The position numbers and the translations under genes are program-made. The notes beneath the pieces are model-generated. The model was not told the DNA's origin. It ran no database searches and saw nothing but the letters and a program-made list of their open reading frames with translations. DNA of 48,921 nt. It comes from a virus. Taxonomy: Duplodnaviria; Heunggongvirae; Uroviricota; Caudoviricetes. The stretch is from IMG/VR virus record IMGVR_UViG_2778261394_000010, one strand, 5' to 3'. Positions 5,073-31,145 of the stretch are shown here, piece after piece (the stretch's first letter is position 1; every line of letters begins with the position of its first letter).

Positions 5073-7630
5073 CGTCCACCTCCGGAGAACAGGCCACCAT
5101 CACGCATCTGTGTCTGAATTTCATCACGGGCACCCTTGCGGGCCATGTCATACACCGCCTTCAGAGCAGCCGGACCTATCTGCCCGTTCGTGCCGTCGTT
5201 GTTAATCACCACATGGTTATTCTGCTCAAACGTCCCGGACGCCTGCGACCGGCTGTCTGCCATGCTGCCCGGTGTACCGACATAACCGCCGGTGGCATAG
5301 CCGCGCATCAGCCGGTAAAGATTCCCCACGCCAATCCGGCTGGTTGCCTCCTTCGTGAAGACAAACTCACCACGGTGAACAATCCCCGCTGGCTCATATT
5401 TGCCGCCGGTTCCCGTAAATCCTCCGGTTGCAAAATGGAATTTCGCCGCAGCGGCCTGAATGGCTGTACCGCCTGACGCGGATGCGCCGCCACCAACAGC
5501 ACCGCCAATGGCGCTGCCGATACTCCCGACAATCCCCACCATTGCCTGCTTAAGCAGAATTTCTGTCATCATGGACAGCACGGAACGGGTGAAGCTGCGC
5601 CAGTTCTGCTCACTGCCGGTCAGCATCGCCGCCATATTCTGTGCAATACCATCAAAGGTCTGCGTGGCTGCACTTTTTACCTGCGACATACTGTCCGTGG
5701 CGCTCTCTTCCCACTCACTCCAGCCGGACTTCAGGCCTGCCATCCAGCTCCCGCGAAGCTGGTCTTCAGCCGCCCAGGTCTTTTTCTGCTCTGACATGAC
5801 GTTATTCAGCGCCAGCGGATTATCGCCATACTGTTCCTTCAGGCGCTGTTCCGTGGCTTCCCGTTCTGCCTGCCGGTCAGTCAGCCCCCGGCTTTTCGCA
5901 TCAATGGCGGCCCGTTTTGCCCGTTGCTGCTGTGCGAATTTATCCGCCTGCTGCGCCAGCGCGTTCAGGCGCTCCTGATACGTAACCTTGTCGCCAAGTG
6001 CAGCCAGCTGGCGTTTGTACTCCAGCGTCTCATCTTTATGCGCCAGCAGGGATTTCTCCTGTGCAGACAGCTGGCGACGTTGCGCCGCCTCCTCCAGTAC
6101 CGCGAACTGACTCTCCGCCTTCCACAAATCCCGGCGCTGCTGGCTGATTTTCTCATTTGCTCCGGCATGCTTCTCCAGCGTCCGGAGTTCTGCCTGAAGC
6201 GTCAGCAGGGCAGCATGAGCACTGTCTTCCTGACGATCGCCCGCAGACACCTTCACGCCGGACTGTTTCGGCTTTTTCAGCGTCGCTTCATAATCCTTTT
6301 TCGCCGCCGCCATCAGCGTGTTGTAATCCGCCTGCAGGATTTTCCCGTCTTTCAGTGCCTTGTTCAGTTCTTCCTGACGGGCGGTATATTTCTCCAGCGG
6401 CGTCTGCAGCCGTTCGTAAGCCTTCTGCGCCTCTTCGGTATATTTCAGCCGTGACGCTTCGGTATCGCTCTGCTGCTGCGCATTTTTGTCCTGTTGAGTC
6501 TGCTGCTCAGCCTTCTTTCGGGCGGCTTCAAGCGCAAGACGGGCCTTTTCACGATCATCCCAGTAACGCGCCCGCGCTTCATCGTTAACAAAATAATCAT
6601 CCTTGCGCAGATTCCAGATGTCGTCTGCTTTCTTAAACGCAGCCTCTGCCTTAATCAGCATCTCCTGCGCGGTATCAGGACGACCAATATCCAGCACCGC
6701 ATCCCACATGGATTTGAATGCCCGCGCAGTCCTGTCTGCCCAGGTCTCCAGCGTGCCCATGTTCTCTTTCAGGCGGCGGGTCTGGTCATCAAACCCTTTC
6801 GTTGCGGCCTCGTTCGCCGCCTGCAATGCCCCGGCTTCATCGCCGGAACGCTGCAACTGAGCAACATACGCAATCTGCTCCGCCGTCACGTTATGGAACT
6901 GGCGTGCCATCACCGTCAGCCCCGACGTCGGGTCTGTGGTCAGCTTCCCGAAGGCTTCAGCGACCTTGTCCACCTCCACGCCGGATGCAGAGGAGAAACG
7001 CGCCACACTCTGGCTGATGGACGCAATCTGAGCCTCACCGCTTACCCCCGCCTTAACCAGTGCGCTGAGTGACTCGCTGGTCTGGTTAAACGTCAGCCCT
7101 GCCGCCTGCCCGGCTCTGGACAAGACCAGCATACGATCTGCCGTCAGTCCCGCCTGATTGCCGGAAAGGACCAGCGTTTTGTTGAAATCGGACAGGGTTG
7201 AGTTGCCCTGATACCAGGCATACGCCAGCGCACCGGTCGCCACCGCCAGCGAGGTGGCCCCCACCATCGGCAGGGTGATCGCACCGGCAAGCCCCCTGAA
7301 CATGGGGATCATCCCGCCGAAGGAGTCCTTCACCTGCCCCCCCTGTTGCAGCAGGATCAGCCACGGACTTTGCCCGCCTGCAAGCTGCGTGGCCACGTCG
7401 GTGAACTGTGCAGGCAGCATACGCATGCCGGCTTTATACTGCCCGACGGAAATCCCCGCTTTCTGTGCAGCCAGCGCCTGTCGGCTCAGCGACTGTTCAA
7501 CGACTGCCGCTGTTTTTTTCGCATCACTTTCCGTACCGAAAAAATGACGCCTGACTCTGGCCATCTGCTCGTCAAATCTGGCCGCATCCAGACTCAAATC
7601 AACGACCAGATCGCCTACCGGTTCAGCCAT
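5069..7630 (-). CDS. H: Tail tape measure protein H
   Basis: 853-aa ORF, coiled-coil rich, with the glycine-rich segment GGAVGGGASASGGTA; same length and position as lambda gpH. Confidence 0.95.
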   Translation of the reverse strand: MAEPVGDLVVDLSLDAARFDEQMARVRRHFFGTESDAKKTAAVVEQSLSRQALAAQKAGISVGQYKAGMRMLPAQFTDVATQLAGGQSPWLILLQQGGQVKDSFGGMIPMFRGLAGAITLPMVGATSLAVATGALAYAWYQGNSTLSDFNKTLVLSGNQAGLTADRMLVLSRAGQAAGLTFNQTSESLSALVKAGVSGEAQIASISQSVARFSSASGVEVDKVAEAFGKLTTDPTSGLTVMARQFHNVTAEQIAYVAQLQRSGDEAGALQAANEAATKGFDDQTRRLKENMGTLETWADRTARAFKSMWDAVLDIGRPDTAQEMLIKAEAAFKKADDIWNLRKDDYFVNDEARARYWDDREKARLALEAARKKAEQQTQQDKNAQQQSDTEASRLKYTEEAQKAYERLQTPLEKYTARQEELNKALKDGKILQADYNTLMAAAKKDYEATLKKPKQSGVKVSAGDRQEDSAHAALLTLQAELRTLEKHAGANEKISQQRRDLWKAESQFAVLEEAAQRRQLSAQEKSLLAHKDETLEYKRQLAALGDKVTYQERLNALAQQADKFAQQQRAKRAAIDAKSRGLTDRQAEREATEQRLKEQYGDNPLALNNVMSEQKKTWAAEDQLRGSWMAGLKSGWSEWEESATDSMSQVKSAATQTFDGIAQNMAAMLTGSEQNWRSFTRSVLSMMTEILLKQAMVGIVGSIGSAIGGAVGGGASASGGTAIQAAAAKFHFATGGFTGTGGKYEPAGIVHRGEFVFTKEATSRIGVGNLYRLMRGYATGGYVGTPGSMADSRSQASGTFEQNNHVVINNDGTNGQIGPAALKAVYDMARKGARDEIQTQMRDGGLFSGGGR

Positions 7631-11011: not shown

Positions 11012-11802
11012 TTACGCCAGTTGTACGGACACGAACTCATCAGGGTCAGCCAGCAGCATCAGCGGTGCTGACTGAATCATGGTGAACTCACGCGCCGGAT
11101 CGCCGGTGGTCACCCAGTTTTTCGGGTAACGGGCAGAGGCGTTAATGCCTTCGCGCTGTGCGTCCGCATCCTGAATGCAGCCATAGGTGCGCAGACCGCG
11201 TGCCTGAGTGTTCCCCAGCACCATCGTGTTGTCCGGCAGGAAGTTCTTTTTGACGCCGTTTTCCACGTACTGTCCGGAATACACGACGATGGCCACATCG
11301 CCATACATCCCCTTATAGGACACCGCTTTACCTAGGTCTTTCACCGCTGTCTCCAGCTCGGAATTAGAGCCACGACGGGTATCCAGCTTTTCCTTGACGG
11401 CTTTGAAGGAACGGAACAGCGCCCAGCCTTTCGGATCAAACACGATGATATTCACCACACCGCTGGCGTTCAGCGCGTAGGCTTCGATATCGTCGGTCGG
11501 GTCATACGTGGACTTGTCACGCTTGCTCCACTCCGTGCCGCCGGACTGCGTGATGTTATTCTCCTCACTGCGGCCCATATCCACCTCAACCGGATCGAAG
11601 GCTTCACCGGTCATGGTGTATTTGCCCTTAAGCACGGCAGAAACTGCCTGCATCTCTTCGACCTGAGCAATGGCCAGCTCTTCGTCACGCATGTTCTGCA
11701 TGATGATGCGACGGCGGCGGTAAGCCGGGTCCGCCAGATTCTGCGGATCTTCATCCGGCAGGCGACGCAGGGTCATCTGCGGATTCACTTCATGCTTCGG
11801 CT
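11012..11802 (-). pseudogene. E: Major capsid protein E, 3' fragment (codons ~83-341), separated from its 5' part by the inserted element
   Basis: Frame reads …PKHEVNPQMTLRRLPDEDPQNLADP… to the normal E C-terminus (…DEFVSVQLA); an in-frame TAG immediately upstream at 11801-11803 marks the insertion junction. Confidence 0.9.
11793..11802. repeat. Left junction core of inserted element (TGCTTCGGCT; rc AGCCGAAGCA)
   Basis: Identical 10-mer recurs at 22723..22732; E-derived sequence is continuous across the two copies once the intervening 10.9 kb is removed. Confidence 0.85.
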
Positions 11803-11874
11803 ACATGAGTCAAATATGAAAGGAACTGAATGATTTTTAATGAAATAAATGGCTCTCTCTATCAAAATACAGCT

Positions 11875-11900
11875 AAAAAGCAATACACGTAGCAATACAG
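11875..11900. repeat. 26-bp terminal direct repeat, left copy (aaaaagcaatacacgtagcaatacag)
   Basis: Near-identical copy (aaaaagcaatacaagctgcaatacag) at 22570..22595 just inside the right junction; contains tandem GCAATACA half-sites. Confidence 0.6.
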
Positions 11901-11929
11901 CGCTTCGCAAAGGTATGTCACTATATCTA

Positions 11930-12865
11930 CTAGTGCCAACCAGAATACGAATATCTTTGCTTTGCTTCTTCTGGGCTCATACCCACTAGTAAAGATACTA
12001 ATTCAAAGTCAGGTTGTGGAATTGGAATCAATGCAGCCAAATATGCTGGCTTATTGAGAACAATTGTTGATAATTTAGCTTTATTCACCTTAGATAACTC
12101 AATATTACTTTCCGCCACCTTCGGGAACTCCATAATAAATGAATTAATTTCCCTTATGAGATAATCGATCAACGCCACTATACTTTCTGTCAAATCAATA
12201 TATTTTGACAACTCACTAGCACCAATTTCTTTCTTTATTTCATCCAATTTAATTTCAAACACTGGCTTGTCTTTACTGGCAATATTAGACAAACGTTTCT
12301 TTAAATCTGAATCAAGCTGATTCCTGACAATTAAACTTTTCAAAACAAAATTATAATTAAACAAAAAAGCATCAATTCGAGCAATATTCCTCCATGAGTT
12401 TCCAATTTCTTCATCTGACGGCATAATAAGTTCATGTTTTAGTATCTTGTACTTAATAAAAAAAACAAACCTCTCAAATAGAGATTTATTAGCTGTGGGT
12501 ATCTTTTTTATAAATGAAAGACGGCTAATATCGTAATTCACCTCCCCGGCGTTAAATAAAAATTCATTTATTGCCAGCGCTCTTAATATCGGATTTCTAG
12601 ATCTCAAACCAATATAACTACTTTTAATTCCCACAAGTGTATTTATCATCTGAAAAGAAACCATCATAAGCGTATTAGCAGAATTAAATTTCTCCGTTTC
12701 TATTTTAATCTTCTCTTGCCTATTATTGATGTAATAAGCAGTTAAGCCTCCCATAAGCGCCGATAAAAAAGATAATGCAATAGGGAATACATAATCTTTT
12801 GTATAATCAACATCTGCTTTCAACATTAGTATTGCTTTAGCAATCAAAACTGCATCAGGGGTCAT
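11930..12865 (-). CDS. Hypothetical protein, AT-rich cargo gene with a predicted N-terminal transmembrane segment
   Basis: Long ORF with low-GC codon usage unlike its neighbours; hydrophobic stretch YVFPIALSFLSALMGGLTAYYI; no recognisable motif. ATG at 12865 preferred over the TTG at 12895 used by the ORF track. Confidence 0.5.
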   Translation of the reverse strand: MTPDAVLIAKAILMLKADVDYTKDYVFPIALSFLSALMGGLTAYYINNRQEKIKIETEKFNSANTLMMVSFQMINTLVGIKSSYIGLRSRNPILRALAINEFLFNAGEVNYDISRLSFIKKIPTANKSLFERFVFFIKYKILKHELIMPSDEEIGNSWRNIARIDAFLFNYNFVLKSLIVRNQLDSDLKKRLSNIASKDKPVFEIKLDEIKKEIGASELSKYIDLTESIVALIDYLIREINSFIMEFPKVAESNIELSKVNKAKLSTIVLNKPAYLAALIPIPQPDFELVSLLVGMSPEEAKQRYSYSGWH

Positions 12866-13565
12866 GTTAGAGCCGTCATTAAAAATTAAACACAATACCC
12901 ATAAAATATAACAGCTTATTGTTTAGAAAAGCAATATCATACACTCTATGATAAGCGTAATATCTGACAGGCATGGTGTGTTACGACACTTAATTAAACG
13001 TAATTTGCTAAAATTTTACACACAGAATCACACCTGGCTCTAACTCTCCTTTCATTACAATTGTAAGCATACAATTATCCTACCAGAACTTTATTGTTGA
13101 GCTCTCCCTTTTGAGCCCATCCCATAATGAATTGACGAAAGAACCGTATCTGTGGAGTAATCATTTCTGCGCGGTTCTATGTCGAAGACAAAATGTGGTA
13201 TGCGCATCTAGTCAGAGGGAAAGCAATTTTTCAGGGAAATATCATCTCTACATGGTTAAGACAACCAGAAGAAGTTATCAAGCAAGTTGGGTATGAAGAT
13301 TTTCCTATAATAGTAACGAAACGGGTTTCACCTGAGCGGTTGTGTTCGATCCGCCACAATACGCATAGGATGCCCTGTAATCCGTATTCTGCTTACTCAA
13401 CAGCTTACCAGCAGGACTCGTAAGGCTGTTGCGATAGTGCAGAAGTAGGCCACGACCATAAAGTGAAGCCAGTGGCGCGTTATCGACTACTTTAGTGTAG
13501 AGCCTGATTTCAACGCAAGCATGAGAGTTTTTTCTGGCGATAGGCCGTGACAAACAGCAACAAAA

Positions 13566-13766
13566 TCAGAGAAAGGAAACGGCAGAGGCCAAAAAGCCCG
13601 TTTTCAGCGCCTGTCATTTCCTTTCTTTTCAGAGGGTATTTTAAATAAAAACATAAAGTTACGGCGAAGAAGAACGGAAACGCCTTAAACCGGAAAATTT
13701 CCATAAATAGAGAAAAACTGCGCGCCTGACGCCCCGTAGCCTGTCAGATCGCCGGAAAGGACCCGC
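13566..13766. other. cos-like site of the inserted element, homologous to the helper cos region but with a diverged cosN 12-mer
   Basis: About 200 bp aligns without gaps to helper 28935..29133 (most positions identical by eye); the cosN position reads cgcctgacgccc (13723..13734) against helper aggtcgtcgccc. Confidence 0.8.
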
Positions 13767-13790
13767 CAGCCAGAGCGGGCCCTAATTTCA

Positions 13791-14174
13791 TCAACCAATC
13801 AGCTTATAGCGACCATCCCGTGCATTGCGGCGTACACGCTCAATCTTGAGGCATAGCGCCGCATCTGGCTTTTTTGGGACAGGTACGCGGCAATATTCAG
13901 AAGCGCGAGGAATATTATTTATCCAGTCGATCACTTCACTTAAATACCAGGCCTTACGCCCTTCCGTAACCTGCACACGCTCCGGGAACTCTCCACTAGC
14001 CTCAAGGTTTAGCAGTGTACGCCGACTCAGGGTTGTAATTTCCATCACCTGATTCATATCAACAAGGCGCTCGCTTAAACACATTTTGTCAGCGATAGCT
14101 TTTAATTCCTCTACAGCTGGATTCGGGTACATCATTTCGGCAATTGGCTTAAGGTCATTGTAATCATTCTGCAT
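13791..14174 (-). CDS. HTH protein with an AlpA/MerR-like C-terminal half, function unknown (regulator or packaging-specificity factor)
   Basis: 127-aa ORF; segment EITTLSRRTLLNLEASGEFPERVQVTEGRKAWYLSEVIDWI resembles AlpA-family HTH; strong SD AAGGGGG; immediately downstream of the D-like gene and upstream of the cos-like site. Confidence 0.55.
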   Translation of the reverse strand: MQNDYNDLKPIAEMMYPNPAVEELKAIADKMCLSERLVDMNQVMEITTLSRRTLLNLEASGEFPERVQVTEGRKAWYLSEVIDWINNIPRASEYCRVPVPKKPDAALCLKIERVRRNARDGRYKLIG

Positions 14175-14185
14175 TGTATCCCCCT

Positions 14186-14527
14186 TTACACACGAGCCAG
14201 CGGCTGAACAGAAATACCTGAGCCAACAAACGCGGCAACCTTTGCCGACAGTTCTCTTACAGACTCAGGCCAGTTCAGAGCATCAACATTTAAAACACCT
14301 GTCTTATAAACCTGTGCCTGTGTTTTTTTCGCTGTGTCGATTTGTACAGCGGAAACATAAACCGCTTTGCCTGCGCTCGTTCCATCCCATACCACTAGCG
14401 CACCAGTTGCATCTTCCTGCATCAGTGGCGTAAACGCAGGTATTACCCCTTTATTGGCTGAAAATATCCCCAGCGTAGTAACCAGTGCTTCAGTGCCAGA
14501 CATGAGTTCAGTGTAATGAGTAGCCAT
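14186..14527 (-). CDS. Head decoration protein, diverged gpD homolog carried by the element
   Basis: 113 aa; …AFTPLMQEDATGALVVWDGTSAGKAVYVSAVQ… parallels lambda gpD …[35 protein letters not shown]…; strong SD AAGGGGGAG. Confidence 0.7.
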   Translation of the reverse strand: MATHYTELMSGTEALVTTLGIFSANKGVIPAFTPLMQEDATGALVVWDGTSAGKAVYVSAVQIDTAKKTQAQVYKTGVLNVDALNWPESVRELSAKVAAFVGSGISVQPLARV

Positions 14528-14536
14528 TGCTCCCCC

Positions 14537-15577
14537 TTAGCCAATGCGAACGGTAACAAAACGATTGATGCGGGCCGGTATTGGCTGTGGTGCTGAATGT
14601 GTCTGCACATATTCAATAGCCGGATCACCAGGCACAATATAGTTTTTCGGTGCAAGTTCGGCTTTAGTCAGCCCCATTCGGATTAGCTCCGGATCCTGAA
14701 TACCGCCATAGGCGACAATCCCCTGAAGAGCCGTATTGCCAAGCACCATCAAATCAGGATCAAGGAAATGTTTTTCAGTTCCGTCCTCGTCGGTATAACG
14801 CCCGCTGTATACAACAATCGCAACATCGCCCATATACCCTTTAAAACTCACCGAATCACCAAGGTCTTTAAGGGCCGTTTCCAGTTCGGAATTAGAACCA
14901 CGACGGGTATCCAGAGCCTCTTTTATCGCTCTGAATGAACGGTATTTCTTCCATACATTACCGCCCATAATGATGATATTAGTGACGCCCTCACTAAATT
15001 CTGCGTAGCTCTCAATATCATCATTTGGATCAAAAGTTTCTTTATCCTTACCTGACCACTCAGCACCGCCAGACTGAGTGATGATATTTTGTGGTTTAAT
15101 ATTCCAGTCCAGCTCATAACGTTCAATACCATCGCCCTCAATGATATTTTTCCCCGTTGTGATTGCCTGAACGGCAAGCCATTCAATACGTGCACGAATA
15201 GCTTTAGCCTGATTTACAATCGCCTGTTTAACTTTAATATTACGCGCTCCAAAAGCATTGTATTGCTCAGGTGATACACCAGCAGGGCGCACAGCTAACT
15301 TATTTGGATCAATGCTGCTTTTCGGCTTCATATAGCCTGGACGAATTGTTTTTGATTCGTACCCTTCGTCACGTGAAACTTTACTACCCACCATAGGAGA
15401 ACAAAACGCTGCAATTGGGATATTTGGATCGTCGATTGTATCAAGAATAATATCGCGCGATTCAAACATTACCGAGCGAGTAAAAAACAAACTGGTAAAC
15501 AACGCATTTAGTTGTTTTTGTACATCTACAGCATTAACCACCTGTACAAGCTGGGTAGGCGAATATAAATCAACCAT
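14537..15577 (-). CDS. Major capsid protein, diverged gpE homolog carried by the element
   Basis: 346 aa from ATG at 15577 (SD AAGAGGA); shares ITQSGG.EWS, TRRGSNSELET and GDVAIVVYSG motifs with lambda gpE but is clearly diverged; earlier in-frame starts at 15583 and 15598 are possible. Confidence 0.85.
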   Translation of the reverse strand: MVDLYSPTQLVQVVNAVDVQKQLNALFTSLFFTRSVMFESRDIILDTIDDPNIPIAAFCSPMVGSKVSRDEGYESKTIRPGYMKPKSSIDPNKLAVRPAGVSPEQYNAFGARNIKVKQAIVNQAKAIRARIEWLAVQAITTGKNIIEGDGIERYELDWNIKPQNIITQSGGAEWSGKDKETFDPNDDIESYAEFSEGVTNIIIMGGNVWKKYRSFRAIKEALDTRRGSNSELETALKDLGDSVSFKGYMGDVAIVVYSGRYTDEDGTEKHFLDPDLMVLGNTALQGIVAYGGIQDPELIRMGLTKAELAPKNYIVPGDPAIEYVQTHSAPQPIPARINRFVTVRIG

Positions 15578-15749
15578 ACGCATCCTCTTTGCATTCATTA
15601 AAAATAATTGTGGATATATGCTATCACCGATATTTGTCATGCGAATACATGCAACCGAGTGCAATGTTGTATAAAGTTTTGGGATGACAACTTCAGCACG
15701 GATAATTAGTGTTAATATCTTCACTCCCTTTGGTCTGGATTTATGTAGC

Positions 15750-15790
15750 ATGCCGGAAAATTTATTTTTTTTCCGGCCTTTTTTATTGGC
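15750..15790 (+). terminator. Hairpin with flanking T-tract (gccggaaaa…ttttccggc + ttttttatt)
   Basis: 9-bp perfect stem followed by a T-run on the plus strand, between the SSB and capsid genes; may act in either direction given the flanking A/T tracts. Confidence 0.4.
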
Positions 15791-15795
15791 AATAT

Positions 15796-16245
15796 TTAAA
15801 ACGGAATATCATCTCCCCATTGCTCATTATCTCCCACTGGTGGATGGCTTCCTTGCTGATCTGCCTGTTGTTTTGCTCTGTTCAGTGCGTCAGTAGCCTG
15901 ACCCTGTTGATCTTTTTTGCCGCCCGGTCGCACCGTTCGCGCACTGATTACGCTGTCTGCGATAACCTGCCAGCCCTGCCGCGTTTCACCGTTCTGTCCA
16001 GTCCACTGGCTCACCTGCATATTACCCGCCACGCTCAGGAGTTCGCCTTTGTGATGCTTTGCCAGCGTGTCGGCTTGTCTGCCAAACGCCAGCACAGATA
16101 ACCACATCGTCGCCGTTCCGTCATCTGCCTGGCTGCATGGCAAAGATACCGCCATCCGTGCCAGTGTCATGGGTGTTCCCTTGCTGGTATGTTTTACCTG
16201 TGGGTCGTCCACCAGCCGCCCGTAAGCTGCTATTTGCGCCGTCAT
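15796..16245 (-). CDS. ssb: Single-stranded DNA-binding protein
   Basis: 149 aa with Gly/Gln-rich linker and acidic C-terminal tail ending DDIPF, the SSB hallmark. Confidence 0.85.
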   Translation of the reverse strand: MTAQIAAYGRLVDDPQVKHTSKGTPMTLARMAVSLPCSQADDGTATMWLSVLAFGRQADTLAKHHKGELLSVAGNMQVSQWTGQNGETRQGWQVIADSVISARTVRPGGKKDQQGQATDALNRAKQQADQQGSHPPVGDNEQWGDDIPF

Positions 16246-16256
16246 GCTGCCTGCTC

Positions 16257-16499
16257 TCAGGACTTAATATTGATGGTTGTCACTTCCTCCGCTTCGGCAA
16301 TCTCCCGTTCGGTCAGCGTGGCAAAGTTTGCAGCCGCCGTTGTCATGAATGCGCTTATCAGTTCGGGATGTGCTTTCGCGTATCCTTCCCCGGCGTTGCG
16401 GTCTATTGCCTTAATCGCCACCCTTAGCCAGTGTTCAGCCATATCAAGGGCGCGGTAATGTGGCTTTATATGTTTGTTCAGTTTTCCTGATGTGTGCAT
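16257..16499 (-). CDS. Hypothetical protein
   Basis: 80-aa ORF between the iteron origin and ssb, co-oriented with the replication operon; no motif recognised. Confidence 0.4.
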   Translation of the reverse strand: MHTSGKLNKHIKPHYRALDMAEHWLRVAIKAIDRNAGEGYAKAHPELISAFMTTAAANFATLTEREIAEAEEVTTINIKS

Positions 16500-16546
16500 T
16501 TTTATTTTTACCCCCTCGTTTAAAAAGTTTTTTGTGCACCACCACC

Positions 16547-16777
16547 TTGTCTACCTTGTCTACCTGATTAGTTATCAGGCCAGTAATGGCGCGGGTTTCA
16601 GGGAGGTAGACAGCCCCAAATAGCTGTCTACCTCATCTCTACCCGTCTCCTTACCTGTCTACAAAAATGGGTAGATAAGGTAGATAACAGGTAGACAGTG
16701 AAAAATAGTTATCTACCTGCATTAATACATTGAAATAAAAGCATTTTATTTCAGTCAGGTAGACAAGGTAGATAACC
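16547..16777. repeat. Iteron cluster, putative replication origin of the element
   Basis: At least 12 copies of GGTAGAYA / TRTCTACC in both orientations, some tandem (ggtagataaggtagataacaggtagacag), with AT-rich spacers, immediately downstream of the primase-helicase gene. Confidence 0.7.
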
Positions 16778-16788
16778 ATTGCCATTTT

Positions 16789-18540
16789 TTATAAAAACGC
16801 ATCGCAATCATCAGTAGTCGTTGCGTTGGTCTGCGTGACTCCCTTAACTTTTCGCGTAATATATTCATATCCGTAAACTTTCGCCGCTGACCTCATAGCC
16901 TTTCCGAACTCATTCACGCTCAAACATTTCCCCTTTCCTGTATATGCCATGAAGGCCATATAGACACGGTAAAGGCTGTTTCTGGTCGTGTACTTCACGG
17001 TGTCACCACCACCGCCCATCATTAGCCCACGAGCTTCCTCCAGAAACTCCAGCGCCGCGCAAAGCTCAACAACCGGATCCGTTTGCTGCTTTATTGCCAG
17101 AGCTTCATCACCGTCACGCTGTTCCAGTAATAAAGCCCGTGCCTTTTCAGGGTCAGCAAAATTAGCCAGCAAGCGGCGGATAATTACGGGGATTTCTGCC
17201 GCTATCTTTTCCGGTAATTCCTTGTCTTTTTCGTCCTCCCTTACAATGTTGTCGAACCGGAAAATCACCCGACGGCGTGACACACCTCCGGCCCGTTCGG
17301 TAAAGATCATCGGGTCGTTATTGGTTGCCAGTACCACCGCCCTTATTATCGTCGTGAATCGCTTCTCATATTTCGGGTTAATTTCAACGGGATCGCCTCC
17401 CGTGATTTTCTTGATGCCCGTGCCTTCCCCCGTATATTTCGGCTGATCGGCAAGGACGATAAGACGACTCCCGACAACCTGCGCACGCCCTCCTGCATCA
17501 TCGAGTGATGTCATCTCTGCGCTTACGGTGTTCTGTTTGCCAGCAAGCAGGGTGGCAATATGGGTAAATGTACTCTTACCGCTTCCCCCGTCTCCGGTGG
17601 CCTCAATGAACATCTGCCAGTCGTACCGGTTCGCCATAATCATGTACAGCGCGGCACATATACGCATCATCTTGCGCGGGTCTTTTCCGGCTGCGTGCTC
17701 AAGCCATTTATGAAAGTTTGGCGCGTTATCGCGGATGTTCTCCCCTGGTGCTGGTGGCGTGTACTCAATGCCGTTGTGCGTGGTGATCCAGTTCTCCGGC
17801 GTGTGCGGGGAAAATTCCCCCGTTTTCAGGTCAAGCGCACCATTGGCGAACGGCAGCAAATCGCCGGACGGCTCGCCCATTGGTTCGGCAATAACTTTTA
17901 ACGCTTCAACGGCGTTATTGATCACGCGTTTGCTGAAAGTGGCCCTGTGCTCTGAATAGATCGCCACCATTTCGCGGCTCAGCTCCATTGTGCTGATCGG
18001 ACACCATACCCCGCCGCGCCATACGTGAACGATTTCACTTTCCGGATGCACACAAACGCCATCAAAGCGCTCGGCAAGCAGCTGCGCGCGCTCACTGTCT
18101 GCCATCTGTGAAAGTTGCGCCTTTTGCTTCGTCGGAAGATTAAGCACCAGGCTTTCCCCACGCTCGCATTCCTCTTTGAGTCGCGGCAACTGGTCGGATA
18201 AATCCACTGGGCTGGTGTCAGTAATCCCCGCGTATTCGTGTACGGTCTTCACTCCAGCCACAGCCAGTAACGTAACAATCTGCGTCATGCTGTGCTCTGT
18301 GATATGTCCTGCGCGGTAAACACGCACACACTGACGATCTTCATCAATGATCCGGTAATCGGTGATGTTTTTCAGTTGCTCATCAGCCAACACGACAGGC
18401 GGCACATCGTCGGCGGCAATATGTTTACCCGCCCATTCCTGCCACTCTTTCGCATGGCTCCACGCATCACTACCTGCAAAGATGATTATCTCTGTCAGTC
18501 TGTCGCGTGGCTGTTTTTTTAAGTTCGGTGCCAGTTTCAT
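16789..18540 (-). CDS. Primase-helicase replication protein (P4-alpha / D5-like, SF3 helicase)
   Basis: 583 aa; Walker A GDGGSGKST followed by a D5_N/SF3-like region (…IVLADQPKYTGEG…LATNNDP…); adjacent to the iteron origin. Confidence 0.85.
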   Translation of the reverse strand: MKLAPNLKKQPRDRLTEIIIFAGSDAWSHAKEWQEWAGKHIAADDVPPVVLADEQLKNITDYRIIDEDRQCVRVYRAGHITEHSMTQIVTLLAVAGVKTVHEYAGITDTSPVDLSDQLPRLKEECERGESLVLNLPTKQKAQLSQMADSERAQLLAERFDGVCVHPESEIVHVWRGGVWCPISTMELSREMVAIYSEHRATFSKRVINNAVEALKVIAEPMGEPSGDLLPFANGALDLKTGEFSPHTPENWITTHNGIEYTPPAPGENIRDNAPNFHKWLEHAAGKDPRKMMRICAALYMIMANRYDWQMFIEATGDGGSGKSTFTHIATLLAGKQNTVSAEMTSLDDAGGRAQVVGSRLIVLADQPKYTGEGTGIKKITGGDPVEINPKYEKRFTTIIRAVVLATNNDPMIFTERAGGVSRRRVIFRFDNIVREDEKDKELPEKIAAEIPVIIRRLLANFADPEKARALLLEQRDGDEALAIKQQTDPVVELCAALEFLEEARGLMMGGGGDTVKYTTRNSLYRVYMAFMAYTGKGKCLSVNEFGKAMRSAAKVYGYEYITRKVKGVTQTNATTTDDCDAFL

Positions 18541-18836
18541 TTTTTGCCCCTGAATGCGTTAATCATGCTTTTCATTTTCTGGATGTTTCCCCGCGCTTTT
18601 TCCCTGCTGATGGGCTTACTGCGGGGTGCGGCATATACCAGGGAAAAATCACGCCGGAACTGATAAACAGGCATCACGCAGTCATAGCTATACCCCTCAC
18701 GACGGTAAGTGATGCGCCGTTCTGCCACGCCTTTAATCGTTACCGTGCCGCCGTATTTATCGCGGTAAATATCGCCGTTCATAAATTCAGGCCGAGCGGG
18801 GCCGCTGGCAATAAAGCCAGAATTTTTCATTTCCAT
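18537..18836 (-). CDS. Hypothetical protein
   Basis: 99-aa ORF whose stop overlaps the primase-helicase start (4-nt overlap), suggesting translational coupling. Confidence 0.4.
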   Translation of the reverse strand: MEMKNSGFIASGPARPEFMNGDIYRDKYGGTVTIKGVAERRITYRREGYSYDCVMPVYQFRRDFSLVYAAPRSKPISREKARGNIQKMKSMINAFRGKK

Positions 18837-18853
18837 ATTATTTATTCCTCGAC

Positions 18854-19075
18854 TTAACTCGACTTATTTGATAGCAGGGCACTATTTATTGCGTCATTGA
18901 GTTTTTCTGCTGCTTCATCAATAAGTGACAACAGGCCATAAGCAATATTTGCATCTTCATTGTCATTTATGCAATCAAGCCACATATTTAATATTGCTTT
19001 TGCTGAATTATTTAAAGTTAATGAACTTTCTGCACATGCTAACAATTTAAAAAAGACTTCCCGTTCTGTATTCAT
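18854..19075 (-). CDS. Hypothetical small protein (AT-rich)
   Basis: 73-aa ORF in the same operon; low GC. Confidence 0.3.
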   Translation of the reverse strand: MNTEREVFFKLLACAESSLTLNNSAKAILNMWLDCINDNEDANIAYGLLSLIDEAAEKLNDAINSALLSNKSS

Positions 19076-19267
19076 TTAATCCCCCACCAGCTTACTTTCT
19101 TCCTCAATCAAAAAACTAGCGACACTTCCCGAAAGACGCGCCAGTAGGCTCGCCAGTGCGGATATATCAGCATCTGTAATTTTGTTCGGGTATACCTCAA
19201 GAAGGCGGCAAATAATTTCTGTCTGGTGCGCACGTTCAGCGGCTTCGTGTAATGTGATTTCCTGCAT
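19076..19267 (-). CDS. Hypothetical small protein
   Basis: 63-aa ORF tightly packed between neighbours. Confidence 0.3.
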   Translation of the reverse strand: MQEITLHEAAERAHQTEIICRLLEVYPNKITDADISALASLLARLSGSVASFLIEEESKLVGD

Positions 19268-19452
19268 TAATGCACCTCTTTTAATTCATACACTGCTGAA
19301 ATAATGACTTGTGATAAGCCATATTCTGATGATTCGCTTCTCACCGCAGCAATAGCCGTCTGAACATTAACAGCCTTCACATTCTGAGCGATACCAATTG
19401 TGTGGCCTATTGGGTTAACAGCTCGGGCAAATACACGGAAGGTTTTAAGCAT
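19267..19452 (-). CDS. Hypothetical small protein, first gene of the element's leftward operon
   Basis: 61-aa ORF directly downstream of the divergent control region. Confidence 0.3.
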   Translation of the reverse strand: MLKTFRVFARAVNPIGHTIGIAQNVKAVNVQTAIAAVRSESSEYGLSQVIISAVYELKEVH

Positions 19453-19832
19453 GACTCACTCCCTGGCGGATTTTTGCAGCGAATACAGCAACACAACCGG
19501 ACGGGCAACGGCTACGCGCTTCGCGTTCCGTCCAGGCGGTTACGTGGATGATTTGAGATTCTCCGGCACTCAGTGCCAGAAAACGCCACACAAAGGCCGT
19601 TTGTGTGTGTACAAGGTGTGGTATATGATTTACAGCAACCATAACGGCTCCTAGTTTACGTTGTTGGTTAGACGCCCCGTATGTGTTCCCAGCACTGCGG
19701 GGCGTTGCTCTTTGTATTTCAACAATCCTTTCGGTGTGTTTCATGTTATGAGCGCATGAAACACACGTCAAGGCTTTTTGTATTTCTTTTTTTGTGTATA
19801 CTGAAACACACCGATGATTAGGAGTTTCAGAA

Positions 19833-20138
19833 ATGGCAACGGCTAACAAAAACGCAAAATCACAACTGACAACTGTCAGAGTCCCACTAGATGTTATGCA
19901 AGGGATGGAATCCGTTAAGCTGGACGGTGAAAGCAATGCCGGATTTATCGTAACCGCCATGCGCGGTGAAATCGCCCGCCGCCAGGCAGAAGGAAGCGGA
20001 GAAAATCCCCTCGTGTCTTCACTGGATACCTTAGCTAAGGTCGAACAAATCGGCATCAAGGCAGCGGAGGAAATCGGGCAACTCGTAGCCGTCGCTCGTG
20101 AAGAACTCCAGCGGCGTAAAGCCAAAGAATCTGAATAA
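19833..20138 (+). CDS. Putative regulator of the element, fold not assigned
   Basis: 101-aa ORF with strong SD AGGAG, transcribed divergently from the replication/capsid operon across a structured intergenic region. Confidence 0.4.
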   Translation: MATANKNAKSQLTTVRVPLDVMQGMESVKLDGESNAGFIVTAMRGEIARRQAEGSGENPLVSSLDTLAKVEQIGIKAAEEIGQLVAVAREELQRRKAKESE

Positions 20139-20488
20139 TTAGTATCAGCGCCGTGATGTGAGTAACTACGGCGCATTGCTATGTAAATACTGGCAATAAA
20201 CAGAAAAGGTAGTTCTACTCCGAATAATTTTATCTGACACTACTCCTGAACTAACATGCGCTTATCTTACAGGATATAAATATAAATCCATAAAATCACG
20301 ATTAAATAAAGTCGCTCCAAACATAAACCACACCCAACGCTTAACAAGATAGCAACAAACAGGTAAATAACTTGCAGAAATATTTATCGCAAGGATTATC
20401 ATTATTAATGACAAATCACTTTACCAAGTCATTCCCCTCTCTTATCATAAAGAGAAAGTAATAAATAAGTTAAGGGAGTTAGAATGCT

Positions 20489-21025
20489 ATGAATCTAAAA
20501 AAAATAGCCACAAACACAAAAAACAAGATAACAGAAACATTTAATAAACTTATATTAGAGGCATCTAAAACCCCCACACAAGATGAAATTAAAATACTTG
20601 AGAGAAGGAGTAAGAAGTTTAATTACTCCTTTTTCTCATACGCAGTCACAGGAGCTATAATAGTTTTTTGCTCTCAACCATTAATTAAATACGCAAACCC
20701 AATACTTATTTTATTGAGTGGTCTGTTACTGTCTATCATCATTATCATTCTCAGAATGATTTATATTTCACAAGCGAATGCATCATGGACAACCAAAAAA
20801 CGCTCACATGTACTAGTTCATTTTCTTTCTGCATGTTTCATAGCATCAACATTGACGTTGCTATATCAGGCTTACGATAATAACATCACACACAAATTGT
20901 ACTGTAAAAATATACAACAACTTATTGAAAAAAGGATAGAAACAGAAAAAAACATCAGCATATTCAGTGGGATGCAATGCACCCCGGTATATGATTACTC
21001 TTTATTTGGATTTAATCTCTTATAA
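20489..21025 (+). CDS. Hypothetical membrane protein, AT-rich cargo gene
   Basis: 178 aa with hydrophobic segments (AVTGAIIVFCSQPLI, ILILLSGLLLSIIIIIL); very low GC; followed by a perfect 13-bp inverted repeat. Confidence 0.5.
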   Translation: MNLKKIATNTKNKITETFNKLILEASKTPTQDEIKILERRSKKFNYSFFSYAVTGAIIVFCSQPLIKYANPILILLSGLLLSIIIIILRMIYISQANASWTTKKRSHVLVHFLSACFIASTLTLLYQAYDNNITHKLYCKNIQQLIEKRIETEKNISIFSGMQCTPVYDYSLFGFNLL

Positions 21026-21034
21026 AGAATGTTA

Positions 21035-21068
21035 TTACTGATTTGAGTACAAATTCTCAAATCAGTAA
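21035..21068. terminator. Perfect 13-bp inverted repeat (ttactgatttgag / ctcaaatcagtaa), probable bidirectional terminator
   Basis: Lies between the convergent cargo gene (+) and the AlpA gene (-), flanked by A/T runs. Confidence 0.5.
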
Positions 21069-21094
21069 TTCATAATATTTTATTCTGAGATAAT

Positions 21095-21331
21095 TTAAAC
21101 TACCCACTCACCTCGAATCCATGCCTGCACTTCTGAAAGACGATATGCAACAGCAGTGGAACCAATCTTGATCCGCTTAGGAAATTTTCCTTCCTTCTCC
21201 AGCTTCCAGCGTGTGCTGTTCGCAAGAGTGGTTAGCTCCCGACATTCTTTCTCACGGATCATTCGGTCAATGTTAGGAATGTACTCCAGACCCTTTTTAT
21301 CAACAATTGCCATTTTTTTCATGTTAACCAA
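21095..21331 (-). CDS. alpA: AlpA-family HTH regulator / excisionase-like protein
   Basis: 78 aa; ELTTLANSTRWKLEKEGKFPKRIKIGSTAVAYRLSEVQAWI fits the AlpA/Xis HTH_17 pattern; immediately downstream of the integrase. Confidence 0.75.
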   Translation of the reverse strand: MVNMKKMAIVDKKGLEYIPNIDRMIREKECRELTTLANSTRWKLEKEGKFPKRIKIGSTAVAYRLSEVQAWIRGEWVV

Positions 21332-22559
21332 CCTTTTGTTTGAGGATTGTCACTTTTGAATCAGCACCTGCGATGCTATTGAGATATGTAGTCCAGAGTT
21401 CCAGAGCATCCAGTTTTTTAGCCATAAACTTACTCCGGTTGTAAACACCTGCCACGCCAGGTAGCGCATGGCCTAACAGTTGTTCTACTACATAAAATTC
21501 AACACCGAGATCACTTAGATGAGTAGATAGCGTTCTTCTAAGGTCGTGTAGTGACCATTGTTTTTCATGGCCCAAACGTTTACCGATTTTCCCCCCAATC
21601 TTGCTTACGCTTTCTCTAATTCGCAGACTTCCCAGCACATAACCAGTATGTTTTGTCTCTTCGTGAACATCCGTTACCCACTGTCGTAGAATTTCAGGTA
21701 CTGGTCTGACGATTTCAACACCAGTTTTTGAGTGATCTTTTGGTACAGTCCAAACCCAACTTTCGAGATCCCATTCGCTCCATTCTGATAATCGGGCTTC
21801 ACTCATTCGACATCCAAATACTGTACAAAGCACAAACATTTTTCGCGTGTATTCAGACATTAGTTTTAAATCAGGCTCGACAAAAATTGCCTTCCAGAGC
21901 TGGCCGAGTTCGGCTTCATCCAGAACCCGATCCCGCTTACCTGCAATCTGCCCCACATCACTCATGCGCAAATCCTTTAAAGCATCACACGTCGCGTACT
22001 GGCGTACCCGACAAAAACGAAGAGCTAATTTAGTGTCAGAAAAAACATACGCCGCCATAACTGGTGCATTACGTTTAATTCGGTCAAAACAGTCCAGCCA
22101 TTCATATAGGTGAGTGTCATTTACGGGCAAATGACCGATATAGGGAAAGATATGCTTTCGAAATCTGCCAAGCGTTACAGCATGAGTTTTACGACGCACC
22201 TTACAGTAATTTTCATACCAGTAATTTAGTGCATCCTCCACTGTAACCGGCTTTAAGCGTTCTTCAGCCTGAATCTTAATCTGGATACGCGGATCACGTT
22301 TGTCAGCCAACCAACCACGGCACTCGTCGCGCTTTTCCCTTGCCTGTTTGAGTGACATATCAGGATATTTACCCAACGTTAGCCAGACCGGAGCAGCCCG
22401 GCCACCTGCTAACCTGTAGAAGAAAACAAAGCTCACAGCCCCTTTAGTACTCACACGAATAGAAAGCCCCTTTCCATCAGCAATGGTGATCTGCTTTTCT
22501 CTGGGTTTCCCCAGATATCCTTTAAGCGCTTTGTCGCTCAGTTTGTTCTCGCCAGCCAT
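21324..22559 (-). CDS. int: Tyrosine integrase (P4-type) of the inserted element
   Basis: ATG at 22559 gives MAGENKLSDKALKGYLG…; C-terminal catalytic region with …HDLRRTLSTHLSDLGV…LLGHA…; about 160 bp from the right junction core. Confidence 0.9.
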   Translation of the reverse strand: MAGENKLSDKALKGYLGKPREKQITIADGKGLSIRVSTKGAVSFVFFYRLAGGRAAPVWLTLGKYPDMSLKQAREKRDECRGWLADKRDPRIQIKIQAEERLKPVTVEDALNYWYENYCKVRRKTHAVTLGRFRKHIFPYIGHLPVNDTHLYEWLDCFDRIKRNAPVMAAYVFSDTKLALRFCRVRQYATCDALKDLRMSDVGQIAGKRDRVLDEAELGQLWKAIFVEPDLKLMSEYTRKMFVLCTVFGCRMSEARLSEWSEWDLESWVWTVPKDHSKTGVEIVRPVPEILRQWVTDVHEETKHTGYVLGSLRIRESVSKIGGKIGKRLGHEKQWSLHDLRRTLSTHLSDLGVEFYVVEQLLGHALPGVAGVYNRSKFMAKKLDALELWTTYLNSIAGADSKVTILKQKVG

Positions 22560-22569
22560 TTTTAGCCCC

Positions 22570-22595
22570 AAAAAGCAATACAAGCTGCAATACAG
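22570..22595. repeat. 26-bp terminal direct repeat, right copy
   Basis: aaaaagcaatacaagctgcaatacag, matching the left copy at 11875..11900 at 24 of 26 positions by eye. Confidence 0.6.
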
Positions 22596-22722
22596 AGATG
22601 ATTGCAACACACAGATAACGAGGAAAATTCAGTGAAAGCACCAGATAAACTTATTCTTTATTATCAAAAGATTAAGTGTAAAAACCAGCAACTACACGAA
22701 AGCCTCAGAAAGCCATGCTAAG

Positions 22723-22732
22723 TGCTTCGGCT
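22723..22732. repeat. Right junction core of inserted element (TGCTTCGGCT)
   Basis: Second copy of the 10-mer; on the minus strand E reads …GTC AAG CCG AAG CAC and then diverges into element sequence (LAWLSEAFV stop). Confidence 0.85.
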
Positions 22733-22967
22733 TGACGTATCCCGGCGTAAATTCAGAGGTGGAGCCGCCACGGGAACGGATAACCTCACCGGAAACAATC
22801 GGCGAAACGTACAGCGCCATGTTTACCAGTCCCGGAATTTGTGAGAGATAGACTTTCTCCGTGGTGAAGGGATAGCTCTCACGGAAAAAGAGACGCAGAA
22901 ACAGCGGATCAAACTTAAATTTCTGCTCATTTGCCGCCAGCAGTTGGGCGGTTGTGTACATCGACAT
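22723..22967 (-). pseudogene. E: Major capsid protein E, 5' fragment (codons 1-82)
   Basis: ATG at 22967 gives MSMYTTAQLLAANEQKFKFDPLFLRLFFRESYPFTTEKVYLSQIPGLVNMALYVSPIVSGEVIRSRGGSTSEFTPGYVKPKH, the lambda gpE N-terminus, then runs into the element. Confidence 0.9.
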
Positions 22968-23022
22968 AAAAAAATCCCGTAAAAAAAGCCGCACAGGCGG
23001 CCTTTAGTGATGAAGGGTCAGG

Positions 23023-24684: not shown

Positions 24685-28365
<3,681 letters not shown>

Positions 28366-28391
<26 letters not shown>

Positions 28392-28911
28392 TCAGCAACC
28401 CCGGTATCAGTTCATCCAGCGCGGCTGCTTTGTTCATGGCTTTGATGATATCCCGTTTCAGGAAATCAACATGTCGGTTTTCCAGTTCCGGAAAACGCCG
28501 CTGCACCGACAGGGGGATCCCGTCGAGAATACTGGCAATTTCACCTGCGATCCGCGACAGCACGAAAGTACAGAATGCGGTTTCCACCACTTCAGCTGAG
28601 TCTCTGGCATTCTTCAGTTCCTGTGCGTCGGCCTGCGCACGCGTAAGTCGATGGCGTTCGTACTCAATAGTCCCTGGCTGGAGATCTGCCTCGCTGGCCT
28701 GGCGCAGTTCTTCAACCTCCCGGCGCAGCTTTTCGTTCTCAATTTCAGCATCCCTTTCGGCATACCATTTTATAACGGCGGCAGAGTCATAAAGCACCTC
28801 ATTACCCTTGCCACCGCCTCGCAGAACGGGCATTCCCTGCTCCTGCCAGTTCTGAATGGTACGGATACTCGCACCGAAAATGTCAGCCAGCTGCTTTTTG
28901 TTGACTTCCAT
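28366..28911 (-). CDS. Nu1: Terminase small subunit Nu1
   Basis: 181-aa ORF MEVNKKQLADIFGASIRTIQNWQEQGMPVLRGGGKGNEVLYDS…, lambda gpNu1; cos lies immediately upstream. Confidence 0.95.
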
Positions 28912-29135
28912 TGTTCATTCCACGGCCAAAAACAGAGAAAGGAAACGACAAAGGCCCAAAAGTTCGTTTTCAGCACCTGTCGTTTCCTTTCTTTTCAGGG
29001 GGTATTTTAAATAAAAACATTAAGTTACGACGAAGAAGAACGGAAACGCCTTAAACCGGAAAATTTTCATAAATAGCGAAAACCCGCGAGGTCGTCGCCC
29101 CGTAACCTGTCGGATCGCCGGAAAGGACCCGCAAA
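28912..29135. other. Helper phage cos region (cosB - cosN - cosQ); cosN 12-mer at 29089..29100
   Basis: Sequence is the reverse complement of the remembered lambda genome ends; cosN reads aggtcgtcgccc, one position different from lambda aggtcgccgccc; the Nu1 start abuts the cosB side. Confidence 0.85.
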
Positions 29136-30851: not shown

Positions 30852-31145
30852 ATGAAAAAAATGCTACTCGCTACTGCGCTGGCCCTGCTTATTACAGGAT
30901 GTGCTCAACAGACATTTACTGTTCAAAACAAACAGACAGCAGTAGCACCAAAGGAAACCATCACCCATCATTTCTTCGTTTCTGGAATTGGGCAGAAGAA
31001 AACTGTCGATGCAGCTAAAATTTGTGGCGGCGCAGAAAATGTTGTTAAAACAGAAACCCAGCAAACATTCGTAAATGGATTGCTCGGTTTTATTACTTTA
31101 GGCATTTATACTCCGCTGGAAGCGCGTGTGTATTGCTCAAAATAA
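30852..31145 (+). CDS. bor: Bor lipoprotein (serum-resistance moron)
   Basis: 97 aa with lipobox LLITGCAQ; matches lambda Bor; between cos and Rz on the opposite strand, as in lambda. Confidence 0.9.
   Translation: MKKMLLATALALLITGCAQQTFTVQNKQTAVAPKETITHHFFVSGIGQKKTVDAAKICGGAENVVKTETQQTFVNGLLGFITLGIYTPLEARVYCSK

Follow-up and report, generated by a model that had tools for sequence, protein, structure and literature searches.

How does a phage satellite that lies inside its own helper prophage come to be packaged, when its cohesive-end site (cos) resembles that of the helper closely and yet offers the terminase a different nicking site? The question is raised by a stretch of 48,921 nucleotides of Caudoviricetes DNA (IMG/VR record IMGVR_UViG_2778261394_000010), referred to here, at its full length, as the window. 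A lambdoid prophage in this window, the helper, carries within its major capsid gene E a low-GC block identified as a helper-embedded phage-inducible chromosomal island (HE-PICI) of the capE ('11capE') type, and the helper and the satellite each contain a lambda-type cos. The answer that we consider probable is plain cos mimicry, in which the satellite is packaged by the terminase of the helper without any redirecting protein and the differences in the nicking site, cosN, are tolerated.

The two cos sites form an ungapped direct repeat of 206 nt (13561-13766 and 28927-29132; MAFFT and a repeat finder, family D1) with 89% identity and 22 mismatches, which is the biggest repeat of the region and is not a product of low-complexity sequence. 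An earlier note, made from the letters alone, had described a match of about 200 bp between the element and the helper cos; the repeat is real, and only the coordinates given there for the helper copy (28935..29133) were 1-3 nt out of register, which is immaterial. The same note had placed the sites about 15.4 kb apart in the same orientation, in agreement with the measured spacing of 15,366 bp; they are co-oriented because both lie on the minus strand. A search for the conserved cosN frame returned two sites in the window, those of the helper and the satellite, where 0.03 would be expected by chance. The 12-mers, which are as the note had stated them, are CGCCTGACGCCC in the element (13723-13734) and AGGTCGTCGCCC in the helper (29089-29100), and they differ at five of 12 bases, so that different cohesive ends are predicted, GGGCGTCAGGCG against GGGCGACGACCT. 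Mismatches are denser within cosN than in the remainder of the repeat (5/12 against 17/194; Fisher p=0.004), and a scan statistic on their clustering in any 12-nt window gave a permutation p of 0.036.

The subsites of phage lambda were mapped onto the window to define the parts of the satellite cos, which are listed below together with the helper cos and the helper terminase.

13758-13764, minus strand: satellite cosQ, GGGTCCT in lambda orientation, the same as in the helper (29124-29130) and in lambda
13723-13734, minus strand: satellite cosN, with the predicted 12-nt 5' cohesive end GGGCGTCAGGCG, matching the helper at 7 of 12 positions
13686-13722, minus strand: cosN-to-R3 spacer (lambda bp 13-49, including I2), 33/37 identical to the helper and to lambda, no indel
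13670-13685, minus strand: R3, the key site for the small terminase subunit TerS (Nu1), the same as in the helper and as lambda bp 50-65 at 16/16 positions
13632-13669, minus strand: I1 region, bent by integration host factor (IHF), between R3 and R2, 35/38 identical to the helper and lambda, assigned by homology only
13611-13626, minus strand: R2, inverted TerS site, AGAAAGGAAATGACAG against lambda AGAAAGGAAACGACAG, one mismatch
13570-13585, minus strand: R1, TerS site, CTGCCGTTTCCTTTCT against lambda CTGTCGTTTCCTTTCT, one mismatch
28927-29132, minus strand: helper cos, with cosQ at 29124-29130, cosN (GGGCGACGACCT) at 29089-29100 and R3 at 29036-29051
28366-28911, minus strand: helper TerS (Nu1), Pfam Phage_Nu1 (9e-101), predicted binder of the satellite cosB
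26466-28391, minus strand: helper TerL (gpA), a nuclease/ATPase (Pfam GpA_ATPase and GpA_nuclease), predicted nickase of the satellite cosN

Read along the minus strand, the helper cos consists of GGGTCCTTTCCGGCGATCCGACAGGTTACG, GGGCGACGACCT and CGCGGGTTTTCGC in succession, followed by the Nu1 start codon, and the corresponding reading of the element is CTGACAGGCTACG, GGGCGTCAGGCG and CGCAGTTTTTCTC. Comparison with the fetched lambda sequence showed that the helper cosN departs from that of lambda by a single base change, G6A, and that the spacer and R3 of the helper are those of lambda. A helper-type cosN that differs from lambda at the central bp 6 (29089-29100) was met in one further case, L010, among about 200 cos sites sampled. 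In the satellite, the differences from the helper fall at bp 6, 8, 9, 10 and 12; the left half GGGCG (bp 1-5) and C11 are kept, and both flanking CG are present, with ACG before GGGCGTCAGGCG and CGC after it.

Outside cosN, the 7-bp extent used for cosQ is the one attributed to Wieczorek and Feiss 2001. A conserved 7-bp cosQ is confirmed in PMC4669245, and the block from -30 to -18 on the cosQ side is nearly invariant over 71 unique cos sequences. The distance between cosN and R3, described as critical by the Feiss laboratory (PMC9026076), is kept in the satellite, since the spacer has no indel. Its cosB, the part that TerS binds, is of helper type, with 91% identity to the helper cosB over 160 nt, and the homology ends just past R1, at about 13561-13566, some 15 bp short of the would-be Nu1 start. 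An exact IHF consensus regex found no match in the satellite cos, nor in lambda itself, so that I1 could be assigned by homology only. The conservation of the cosQ side and of the R-site/IHF flank reported in the earlier note thus holds (cosQ identical, R3-I1-R2-R1 kept), and with it the proposal that the satellite cos mimics that of the helper. Judged from its sequence, the satellite site is a complete lambda-type cos, with cosQ, the cosN frame, R3-I1-R2-R1 and exact spacing, and nothing is missing from it that is known to be recognised by TerS or IHF. The satellite cos showed no convincing promoter or terminator, and an Rfam scan of the whole element gave no matches.

Characterised PICIs of E. 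coli redirect the helper terminase. EcCICFT073 and its relatives have the cosQ and cosN of the helper, but their cosB is unrelated and lacks I1, R2 and R1, and the protein Rpp, encoded just downstream, heterodimerises with the helper TerS and retargets it to the PICI cosB (PMC6739421, PMC9026076). A tblastn search of the window with RppA of the authentic EcCICFT073, whose identity was verified against PDB 6HLK (RppC, 5e-31), gave no match. The TerS variants of sibling satellites likewise matched only the helper Nu1 in the window, and the element holds no homologue of them.

The remaining issue is whether the helper terminase can work on the variant cosN, and its distribution in nature is informative here. 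Cos sites were collected by a pattern scan of IMG/VR in which the 12-mer was left free, supplemented with the relatives of a 127-aa gene adjacent to the satellite cos; the allele and variability counts of this census apply to the matches listed. It comprised at least 202 cos sites with six discrete cosN alleles. Across 71 non-redundant sites with a lambda-type cosB, cosN positions 1-5 and 11 showed zero variation, and variation was highest at positions 6-10 and 12 (0.75 bits; on the cosB side it was 0.14-0.29). An exhaustive IMG/VR scan for the exact variant 12-mer found it at 52 sites, 48 in satellites and four in phage contexts (L206, L239, L241 and L227). Where Nu1 is present in these phages, it is 98.9% (L206) or 100% (L239 and L241) identical to the helper Nu1, and the L206 gpA is 99.2% identical to the helper gpA over its full length of 641 aa; its five differences are all found in phages with the lambda cosN, none being private. 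Phages with cosN GGGCGGAAGGCG, which has the same right half as the satellite allele, encode a gpA 98.8-99.5% identical to that of the helper. Adaptation of TerL to the cosN class was rejected, as no class-specific gpA residue was found. The same terminase therefore lives with the variant cosN in nature, as phages sharing Nu1, gpA and the allele demonstrate.

Published genetics of lambda points in the same direction. Changes at cosN bp 7-12 have minimal effect on lambda TerL, and bottom-strand nicking is driven by TerS anchoring at cosB (PMC4669245). The change G2C lowers yield 10-fold and the symmetric C11G has no effect (Feiss et al. 2015, PMC4669245), and lambda TerL cleaves the cosN of lambda and that of N15 equally (PMC4669245). 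Natural cosN variants are known from N15 and phiD326 (bp 9 and 12) and from Gifsy-1 (bp 8, 9 and 11), with the flanking CG and cosQ conserved (PMC4669245). On this evidence, the variant cosN of the satellite is a tolerated natural allele, rare and altered in the half of cosN that varies, and is probably no barrier to packaging. To call it 'rewritten', as the earlier note did, was an overstatement, and its suggestion that an altered cosN calls for a packaging-specificity factor is not supported, given that the changes sit in positions that TerL tolerates and that phages with the same terminase share this cosN. A literature search for the cohesive-end strings returned unrelated primer matches only. 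Four further sites (L030, L070, L081 and L075), considered as Rpp-type PICIs, proved to be prophage cos remnants that lack a downstream open reading frame (ORF) for TerS or Rpp; insertion elements are the apparent cause of their truncation.

For cleavage itself, the nature of the ends and the size of the multimer, we infer the following course. The satellite would leave helper gene E and replicate to concatemers, after which helper Nu1 and IHF would bind its lambda-type cosB, in which R3 is identical, I1, R2 and R1 are near-identical and the spacing is exact, and Nu1 would place helper gpA on the satellite cosN. Nicking by gpA with a 12-bp stagger would produce the cohesive ends GGGCGTCAGGCG, the five differences being probably tolerated because nicking in the centre and the cosB-proximal half of cosN depends on TerS anchoring more than on sequence. 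Packaging would then proceed processively until the head is full. In lambda, termination depends on head filling, and the packaging window is 78-105% of a head. Since three and five units of the 10,930-bp circle (68% and 113%) fall outside it, termination would most likely come after four units, or 43,720 bp, 90% of the lambda length. The analogy is with the related EcCICFT073, which is packaged through cos by lambda or phi80 terminase, with phage-sized DNA in its particles (PMC6092414). For the published satellite 11capE, excision was observed and cos packaging presumed by Tommasini et al. 2023 (PMC10111431). The variant allele, a rare phage allele, was probably captured by the satellite lineage together with the lambda-type cosB and would have been retained since. 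In the integrated state, sub-genomic cutting between the two sites is geometrically possible.

Several points weigh against this account. Cleavage and packaging of the element in the window are predictions, and virions of 50icd, the helper of 11capE, were undetected in the study of Tommasini et al. (PMC10111431). No excised or circular satellite was found among the IMG/VR contigs of about 11 kb, all of those examined being without terminal repeats; they appear to be integrated forms, because those with informative flanks carry capsid-gene fragments or att cores. The variant allele was found in none of 50,697 curated phage genomes, and the phage contexts that carry it are predicted prophages of unproven viability. 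The four changes in the I2-containing spacer of the satellite and the single changes in R2 and R1 could lower efficiency, and the combination of five bases, in which the central bp 6 is changed and the symmetry of G3 with C10 is lost, lies outside the published biochemistry. Finally, neutral tolerance alone does not explain why the variant is fixed in satellites with a lambda-type cosB (23/23 sites in an allele-agnostic scan, none with the lambda allele, and 26/26 unique sequences) despite recombination in both flanks.

This last point is the basis of the best-surviving alternative, in which the cohesive ends act as a barcode: a satellite that shares TerS and cosB with its helper would keep a cosN unable to anneal with helper ends, so that hybrid chromosomes are dead. 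Two hybrid products are expected, one of 15.4 kb from the helper cos to the satellite cos and one of about 45 kb, a lambda head-full, from the satellite cos to the helper cos (the latter computed with the published composite size of 61 kb), and circularisable DNA would then arise only from satellite-to-satellite or helper-to-helper intervals. In addition to the fixation of the variant, satellite and helper cosN disagree in each of the eight pairs in which the satellite cosB is of lambda type (the window, three IMG/VR composites and four RefSeq genomes). Among satellites that have a TerS and a cosB of their own, by contrast, the lambda cosN prevails (17/24 unique sequences). The 12-mer is also constant in 48 satellite sites whose flanks vary, the cosB being 66-97% identical to the helper; because both flanks are mosaic yet cosN is invariant, selection for end incompatibility keeps a low probability. 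A duplex of hybrid ends is predicted to pair through 5 bp only, at about -8 kcal/mol compared with -18 to -19, and a 2-bp end mismatch already costs 4-fold in viable yield (PMC4669245). One composite even shows the reverse mismatch, with GGGCGGAAGGCG in the helper and the lambda allele in the satellite.

However, a founder effect with tight linkage of cosN and cosB explains the fixation adequately, and, given such an effect, the satellite/helper mismatch follows automatically, the lambda allele being that of most helpers. The sampled sites are not independent in phylogeny and are skewed to relatives of the window element, three embedded satellites of the TerS type have a cosN that matches their helper, and a fitness gain for the satellite from killing hybrid molecules is hypothetical. 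Moreover, lambda termination at a cos merely 15.4 kb downstream is expected to be inefficient regardless. We regard selection for incompatible ends as unlikely, if less so than the other alternatives. The composite with the reverse mismatch (IMGVR_UViG_2923302340_000009) holds a different satellite, with an integrase 55% identical, which interrupts portal gene B at about 870; its site L249 (about 4539), at first a candidate for a satellite with GGGCGGAAGGCG, proved to be the helper phage cos, and L122 is the satellite cos.

A second alternative is that the site no longer functions and is a scar, left when recombination between satellite and prophage brought in part of the helper cos, and that it is now decaying, with its cosN degraded. 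The founding composite gave no detected virions and capture of late genes by such satellites is documented (PMC10111431), and the mismatches do cluster in cosN. The supposed decay would be far from random, however, as every position of known importance (G1-G5, C11, the flanking CG, cosQ, R3 and the spacing) is intact. One and the same 12-mer is shared by 48 satellite sites that belong to several cosB/TerS module types and several clades of the 127-aa protein, and the site sits where other PICIs have a functional cos. A scar is accordingly very improbable.

The weakest alternative, raised in the earlier note, is that the altered cosN needs a specificity factor encoded by the satellite, analogous to Rpp, with the adjacent 127-aa helix-turn-helix (HTH) protein as the candidate.

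13791-14174, minus strand: 127-aa AlpA-family HTH protein, ending about 25 bp before cosQ, on its upstream side

The gene exists where the note had placed it, is conserved in the lineage, and its AlpA/MerR-like winged HTH broadly resembles the fold of the TerS/Rpp DNA-binding domain (PMC6739421; an argument from fold class). The protein matches Pfam Phage_AlpA (7.6e-9), the AlpA structure PDB 8c3t (2e-9) and PHROG 2790 'excisionase and transcriptional regulator' (1e-49), the PHROG that also contains the canonical 78-aa AlpA of the element, and a PDB search gave no match to RppC. The satellite thus has two AlpA-family paralogues: that of 78 aa adjoins int, and that of 127 aa lies beside cos, where the late operon ends. 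Since the protein occurs 100% identical beside the lambda cosN (L120, L122 and L151) and beside the variant, is kin to AlpA and has an unrelated neighbour as its counterpart in EcCICFT073, since this cosN is also found, together with the same Nu1 and gpA, in phages that lack the gene, and since specificity in this system resides in TerS-cosB and the cosB here is of helper type, a role as cosN specificity factor can be dismissed as the least probable of all; it may instead be a late regulator or a second directionality factor.

Plain cos mimicry is thus the reading under which the rest of the element is described. The satellite is bounded and organised as follows.

11793-22732, minus strand: satellite, HE-PICI of the capE ('11capE') type, whose excised circle would be 10,930 bp
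22723-22732, minus strand: attL identity block AGCCGAAGCA, where the 5' fragment of helper E meets the int end of the satellite
11793-11802, minus strand: attR identity block AGCCGAAGCA, where the cargo end of the satellite meets the 3' fragment of helper E
21324-22610: satellite integrase
21095-21331: canonical 78-aa AlpA, adjacent to int
16789-18540: D5 primase

The prophage genes run on the minus strand in the order Nu1, A, W, B, C, D and then the tail genes. Capsid gene E is split, with Pfam positions 1-78 at 22692-22994 and positions 94-328 at 11012-11788, and joining the fragments over one copy of AGCCGAAGCA restores a frame like that of lambda E (...GYVKPKH/EVNPQMTLRR...). The block is in agreement with that of 10 bp described for 11capE (PMC10111431). 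Arm-type repeats lie close inside both satellite ends. The satellite genes encode a tyrosine integrase, the 78-aa AlpA, a D5-type primase, SSB, an E-like capsid protein, a D-like decoration protein and the 127-aa AlpA-domain protein; no terminase or tail genes were found within it, all its genes point the same way, and its size falls in the range of 10-20 kb that marks HE-PICIs. Copies that agree with the element from end to end at 99.9% identity occur in complete E. coli genomes, and 47 of 5,426 genomes contain at least 80% of it. In all four complete genomes that were opened, the satellite again splits a prophage capsid gene, with the same context of the 10-bp block. From the identical target site and the gene content, the integrase would belong to the single HE-PICI integrase clade.

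Other features of the element and its surroundings were also noted. The longest ORF for the satellite capsid (14537-15751) encodes 404 aa, with Pfam Phage_cap_E over residues 70-401; its N-terminal extension of about 70 aa probably reflects an upstream in-frame start, as RefSeq calls a protein of 346 aa. Iteron-like repeats at 16604-16776, just downstream of the primase, consist of palindromes (AGGTAGACAG...CTGTCTACCT) together with GGTAGATAAGGTAGATAAC (repeat families D4 and D17), and the replication origins of Gram-negative PICIs have been reported at a matching position. A cargo hot spot lies between cos and attR. In the window it is occupied by a gene for 321 aa (11930-12895, minus strand; 31.7% GC; PHROG 21267, function unknown) with no Pfam or PADLOC match, in strain 104 (L203:17011-18727) by DUF262 and HEPN genes that look like a defence system, and in other siblings (L142:7288-8193) by a 301-aa gene on the opposite strand. 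The roughly 670 bp from cosB to the cargo gene (12896-13565) contain no convincing gene and no Rfam match. An 82-aa ORF in this interval (13305-13553), in the position of Nu1 or rpp, was treated as non-coding: it belongs to no Pfam or PHROG family, is unannotated in RefSeq contexts and is shared by no more than some of the relatives. A gene for a serum-survival lipoprotein of iss/bor type, annotated from identical RefSeq contexts, lies immediately beyond the helper cos (30852-31145).

Sibling satellites differ from the window element in what follows their cos. Those of the capE type (L142:6630-7181; also L143, L144, L145, L126, L127/L087 and L131) carry, right after the same variant cos, a gene for a chimeric small terminase of 183 aa, in which about the first 100 residues, with the DNA-binding domain among them, are almost those of helper Nu1 and the C-terminal half has diverged (71-72% identity overall). 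In lambda, the C-terminal half of Nu1 holds the self-assembly and TerL-binding regions. The chimera may be a hijacking device unlike Rpp. Other relatives with the same 127-aa HTH protein (L120, at the equivalent of about 6586-7125; L092; L165; L122:6586-7125) have an unrelated cosB and a full-length TerS homologue of 180 aa, which is 34-37% identical to Nu1, starts 146 bp after cosN and by sequence matches neither RppC nor any PDB chain; in most of these satellites cosN is still the lambda allele. The window element thus lacks the small terminase of its own that its siblings have as the 180-aa homologue or the 183-aa Nu1 chimera. Because sibling satellites hold a TerS-like gene in the space corresponding to 12896-13565, this interval may be a deletion scar.

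The kind of element and its cos homology have already been published, and most of what is found here is confirmation. The cos architecture inverse to that of Rpp, the fixation of a non-helper cosN in this class of satellites and the siblings with a chimeric TerS appear not to have been described. Within one E. coli satellite family there are at least three cos designs, namely a helper-type cosB with no factor, a helper-type cosB with a chimeric TerS, and a private cosB with an own TerS; the Rpp design is a fourth packaging-site design. The type in the window is the simplest and is a direct competitor of the helper for recognition by the same terminase. The locus poses the question of whether selection acts on the sequence of the cohesive ends, for instance against hybrids, or whether this is merely the half of cosN that lambda genetics leaves free to vary. 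If barcoding were true, the variable half would be a selected isolation device between parasite and host virus rather than neutral, which might explain why, in lambdoid phages generally, no part of cos is as polymorphic as cosN bp 6-12. PICI delivery vehicles and cosmid-like tools assume cos compatibility in cosB only.

Among known systems, the closest is the HE-PICI Eco567.11capE in prophage 50icd of E. coli NRG857c (Tommasini, Mageeney & Williams 2023, PMC10111431), which has the same size of 11 kb, int and AlpA, a primase and its own capsid and decoration genes. Its genes are also co-oriented with the late operon of the helper, and it is inserted in a lambdoid E at a 10-bp identity block without replacement sequence. 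The likeness extends, by description rather than base-by-base comparison, to about 200-260 bp at about 90% identity to the helper at the cos position; some 258 bp of 90% cos homology were noted for 11capE, with cosN and cosB unmentioned (PMC10111431). The helper in the window appears to be another lambdoid prophage than the 11capE helper, since it has an intD-type integrase at the window end and the published helper resides at icd; a similar context (L204) has an adjacent tRNA-Arg.

EcCICFT073 (Fillol-Salom 2018/2019; Murialdo & Feiss 2022) is comparable in size, in gene order (primase, SSB, capsid, decoration and then cos), in dependence on a lambda-type helper TerS/TerL and in the conserved cosQ. 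In its fetched cos1, the cosN is that of lambda, the sequence becomes unrelated after bp 35 and rppA starts at bp 102 after cosN, and the gene upstream of its cos encodes 137 aa and is unrelated to the 127-aa AlpA-like gene. In the window element, by contrast, cosB is related to that of the helper, no rpp lies about 100 bp downstream and cosN is not helper-identical. It is the inverse of the Rpp design, because the helper cosB is kept, there is no redirecting protein and the cosN is not that of the helper.

Cos-type pathogenicity islands of Staphylococcus aureus such as SaPIbov5 likewise have the helper cos, no terS, direct use of the helper terminase and a homologue of the helper capsid protein (PMC6092414). 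They belong to an unrelated lineage with other cos and terminase types, and the capsid homologue of SaPIbov5 makes small capsids, whereas EcCICFT073 does not. Natural variation in cosN is shared with N15, phiD326 and Gifsy-1, and lambda TerL is not cosN-specific (Feiss et al. 2015, PMC4669245). The published cosN variants differ at 2-3 positions, whereas the satellite differs at five, and does so against the helper in which it resides rather than a separate phage. About 200 bp of lambda cos suffices for packaging, and small replicons are packaged as multimers filling 78-105% of a lambda head. Cosmids and cos plasmids, for which such a fragment is likewise enough for the helper terminase, are thus the engineered counterpart of the window element, which is natural, integrative and self-replicating.

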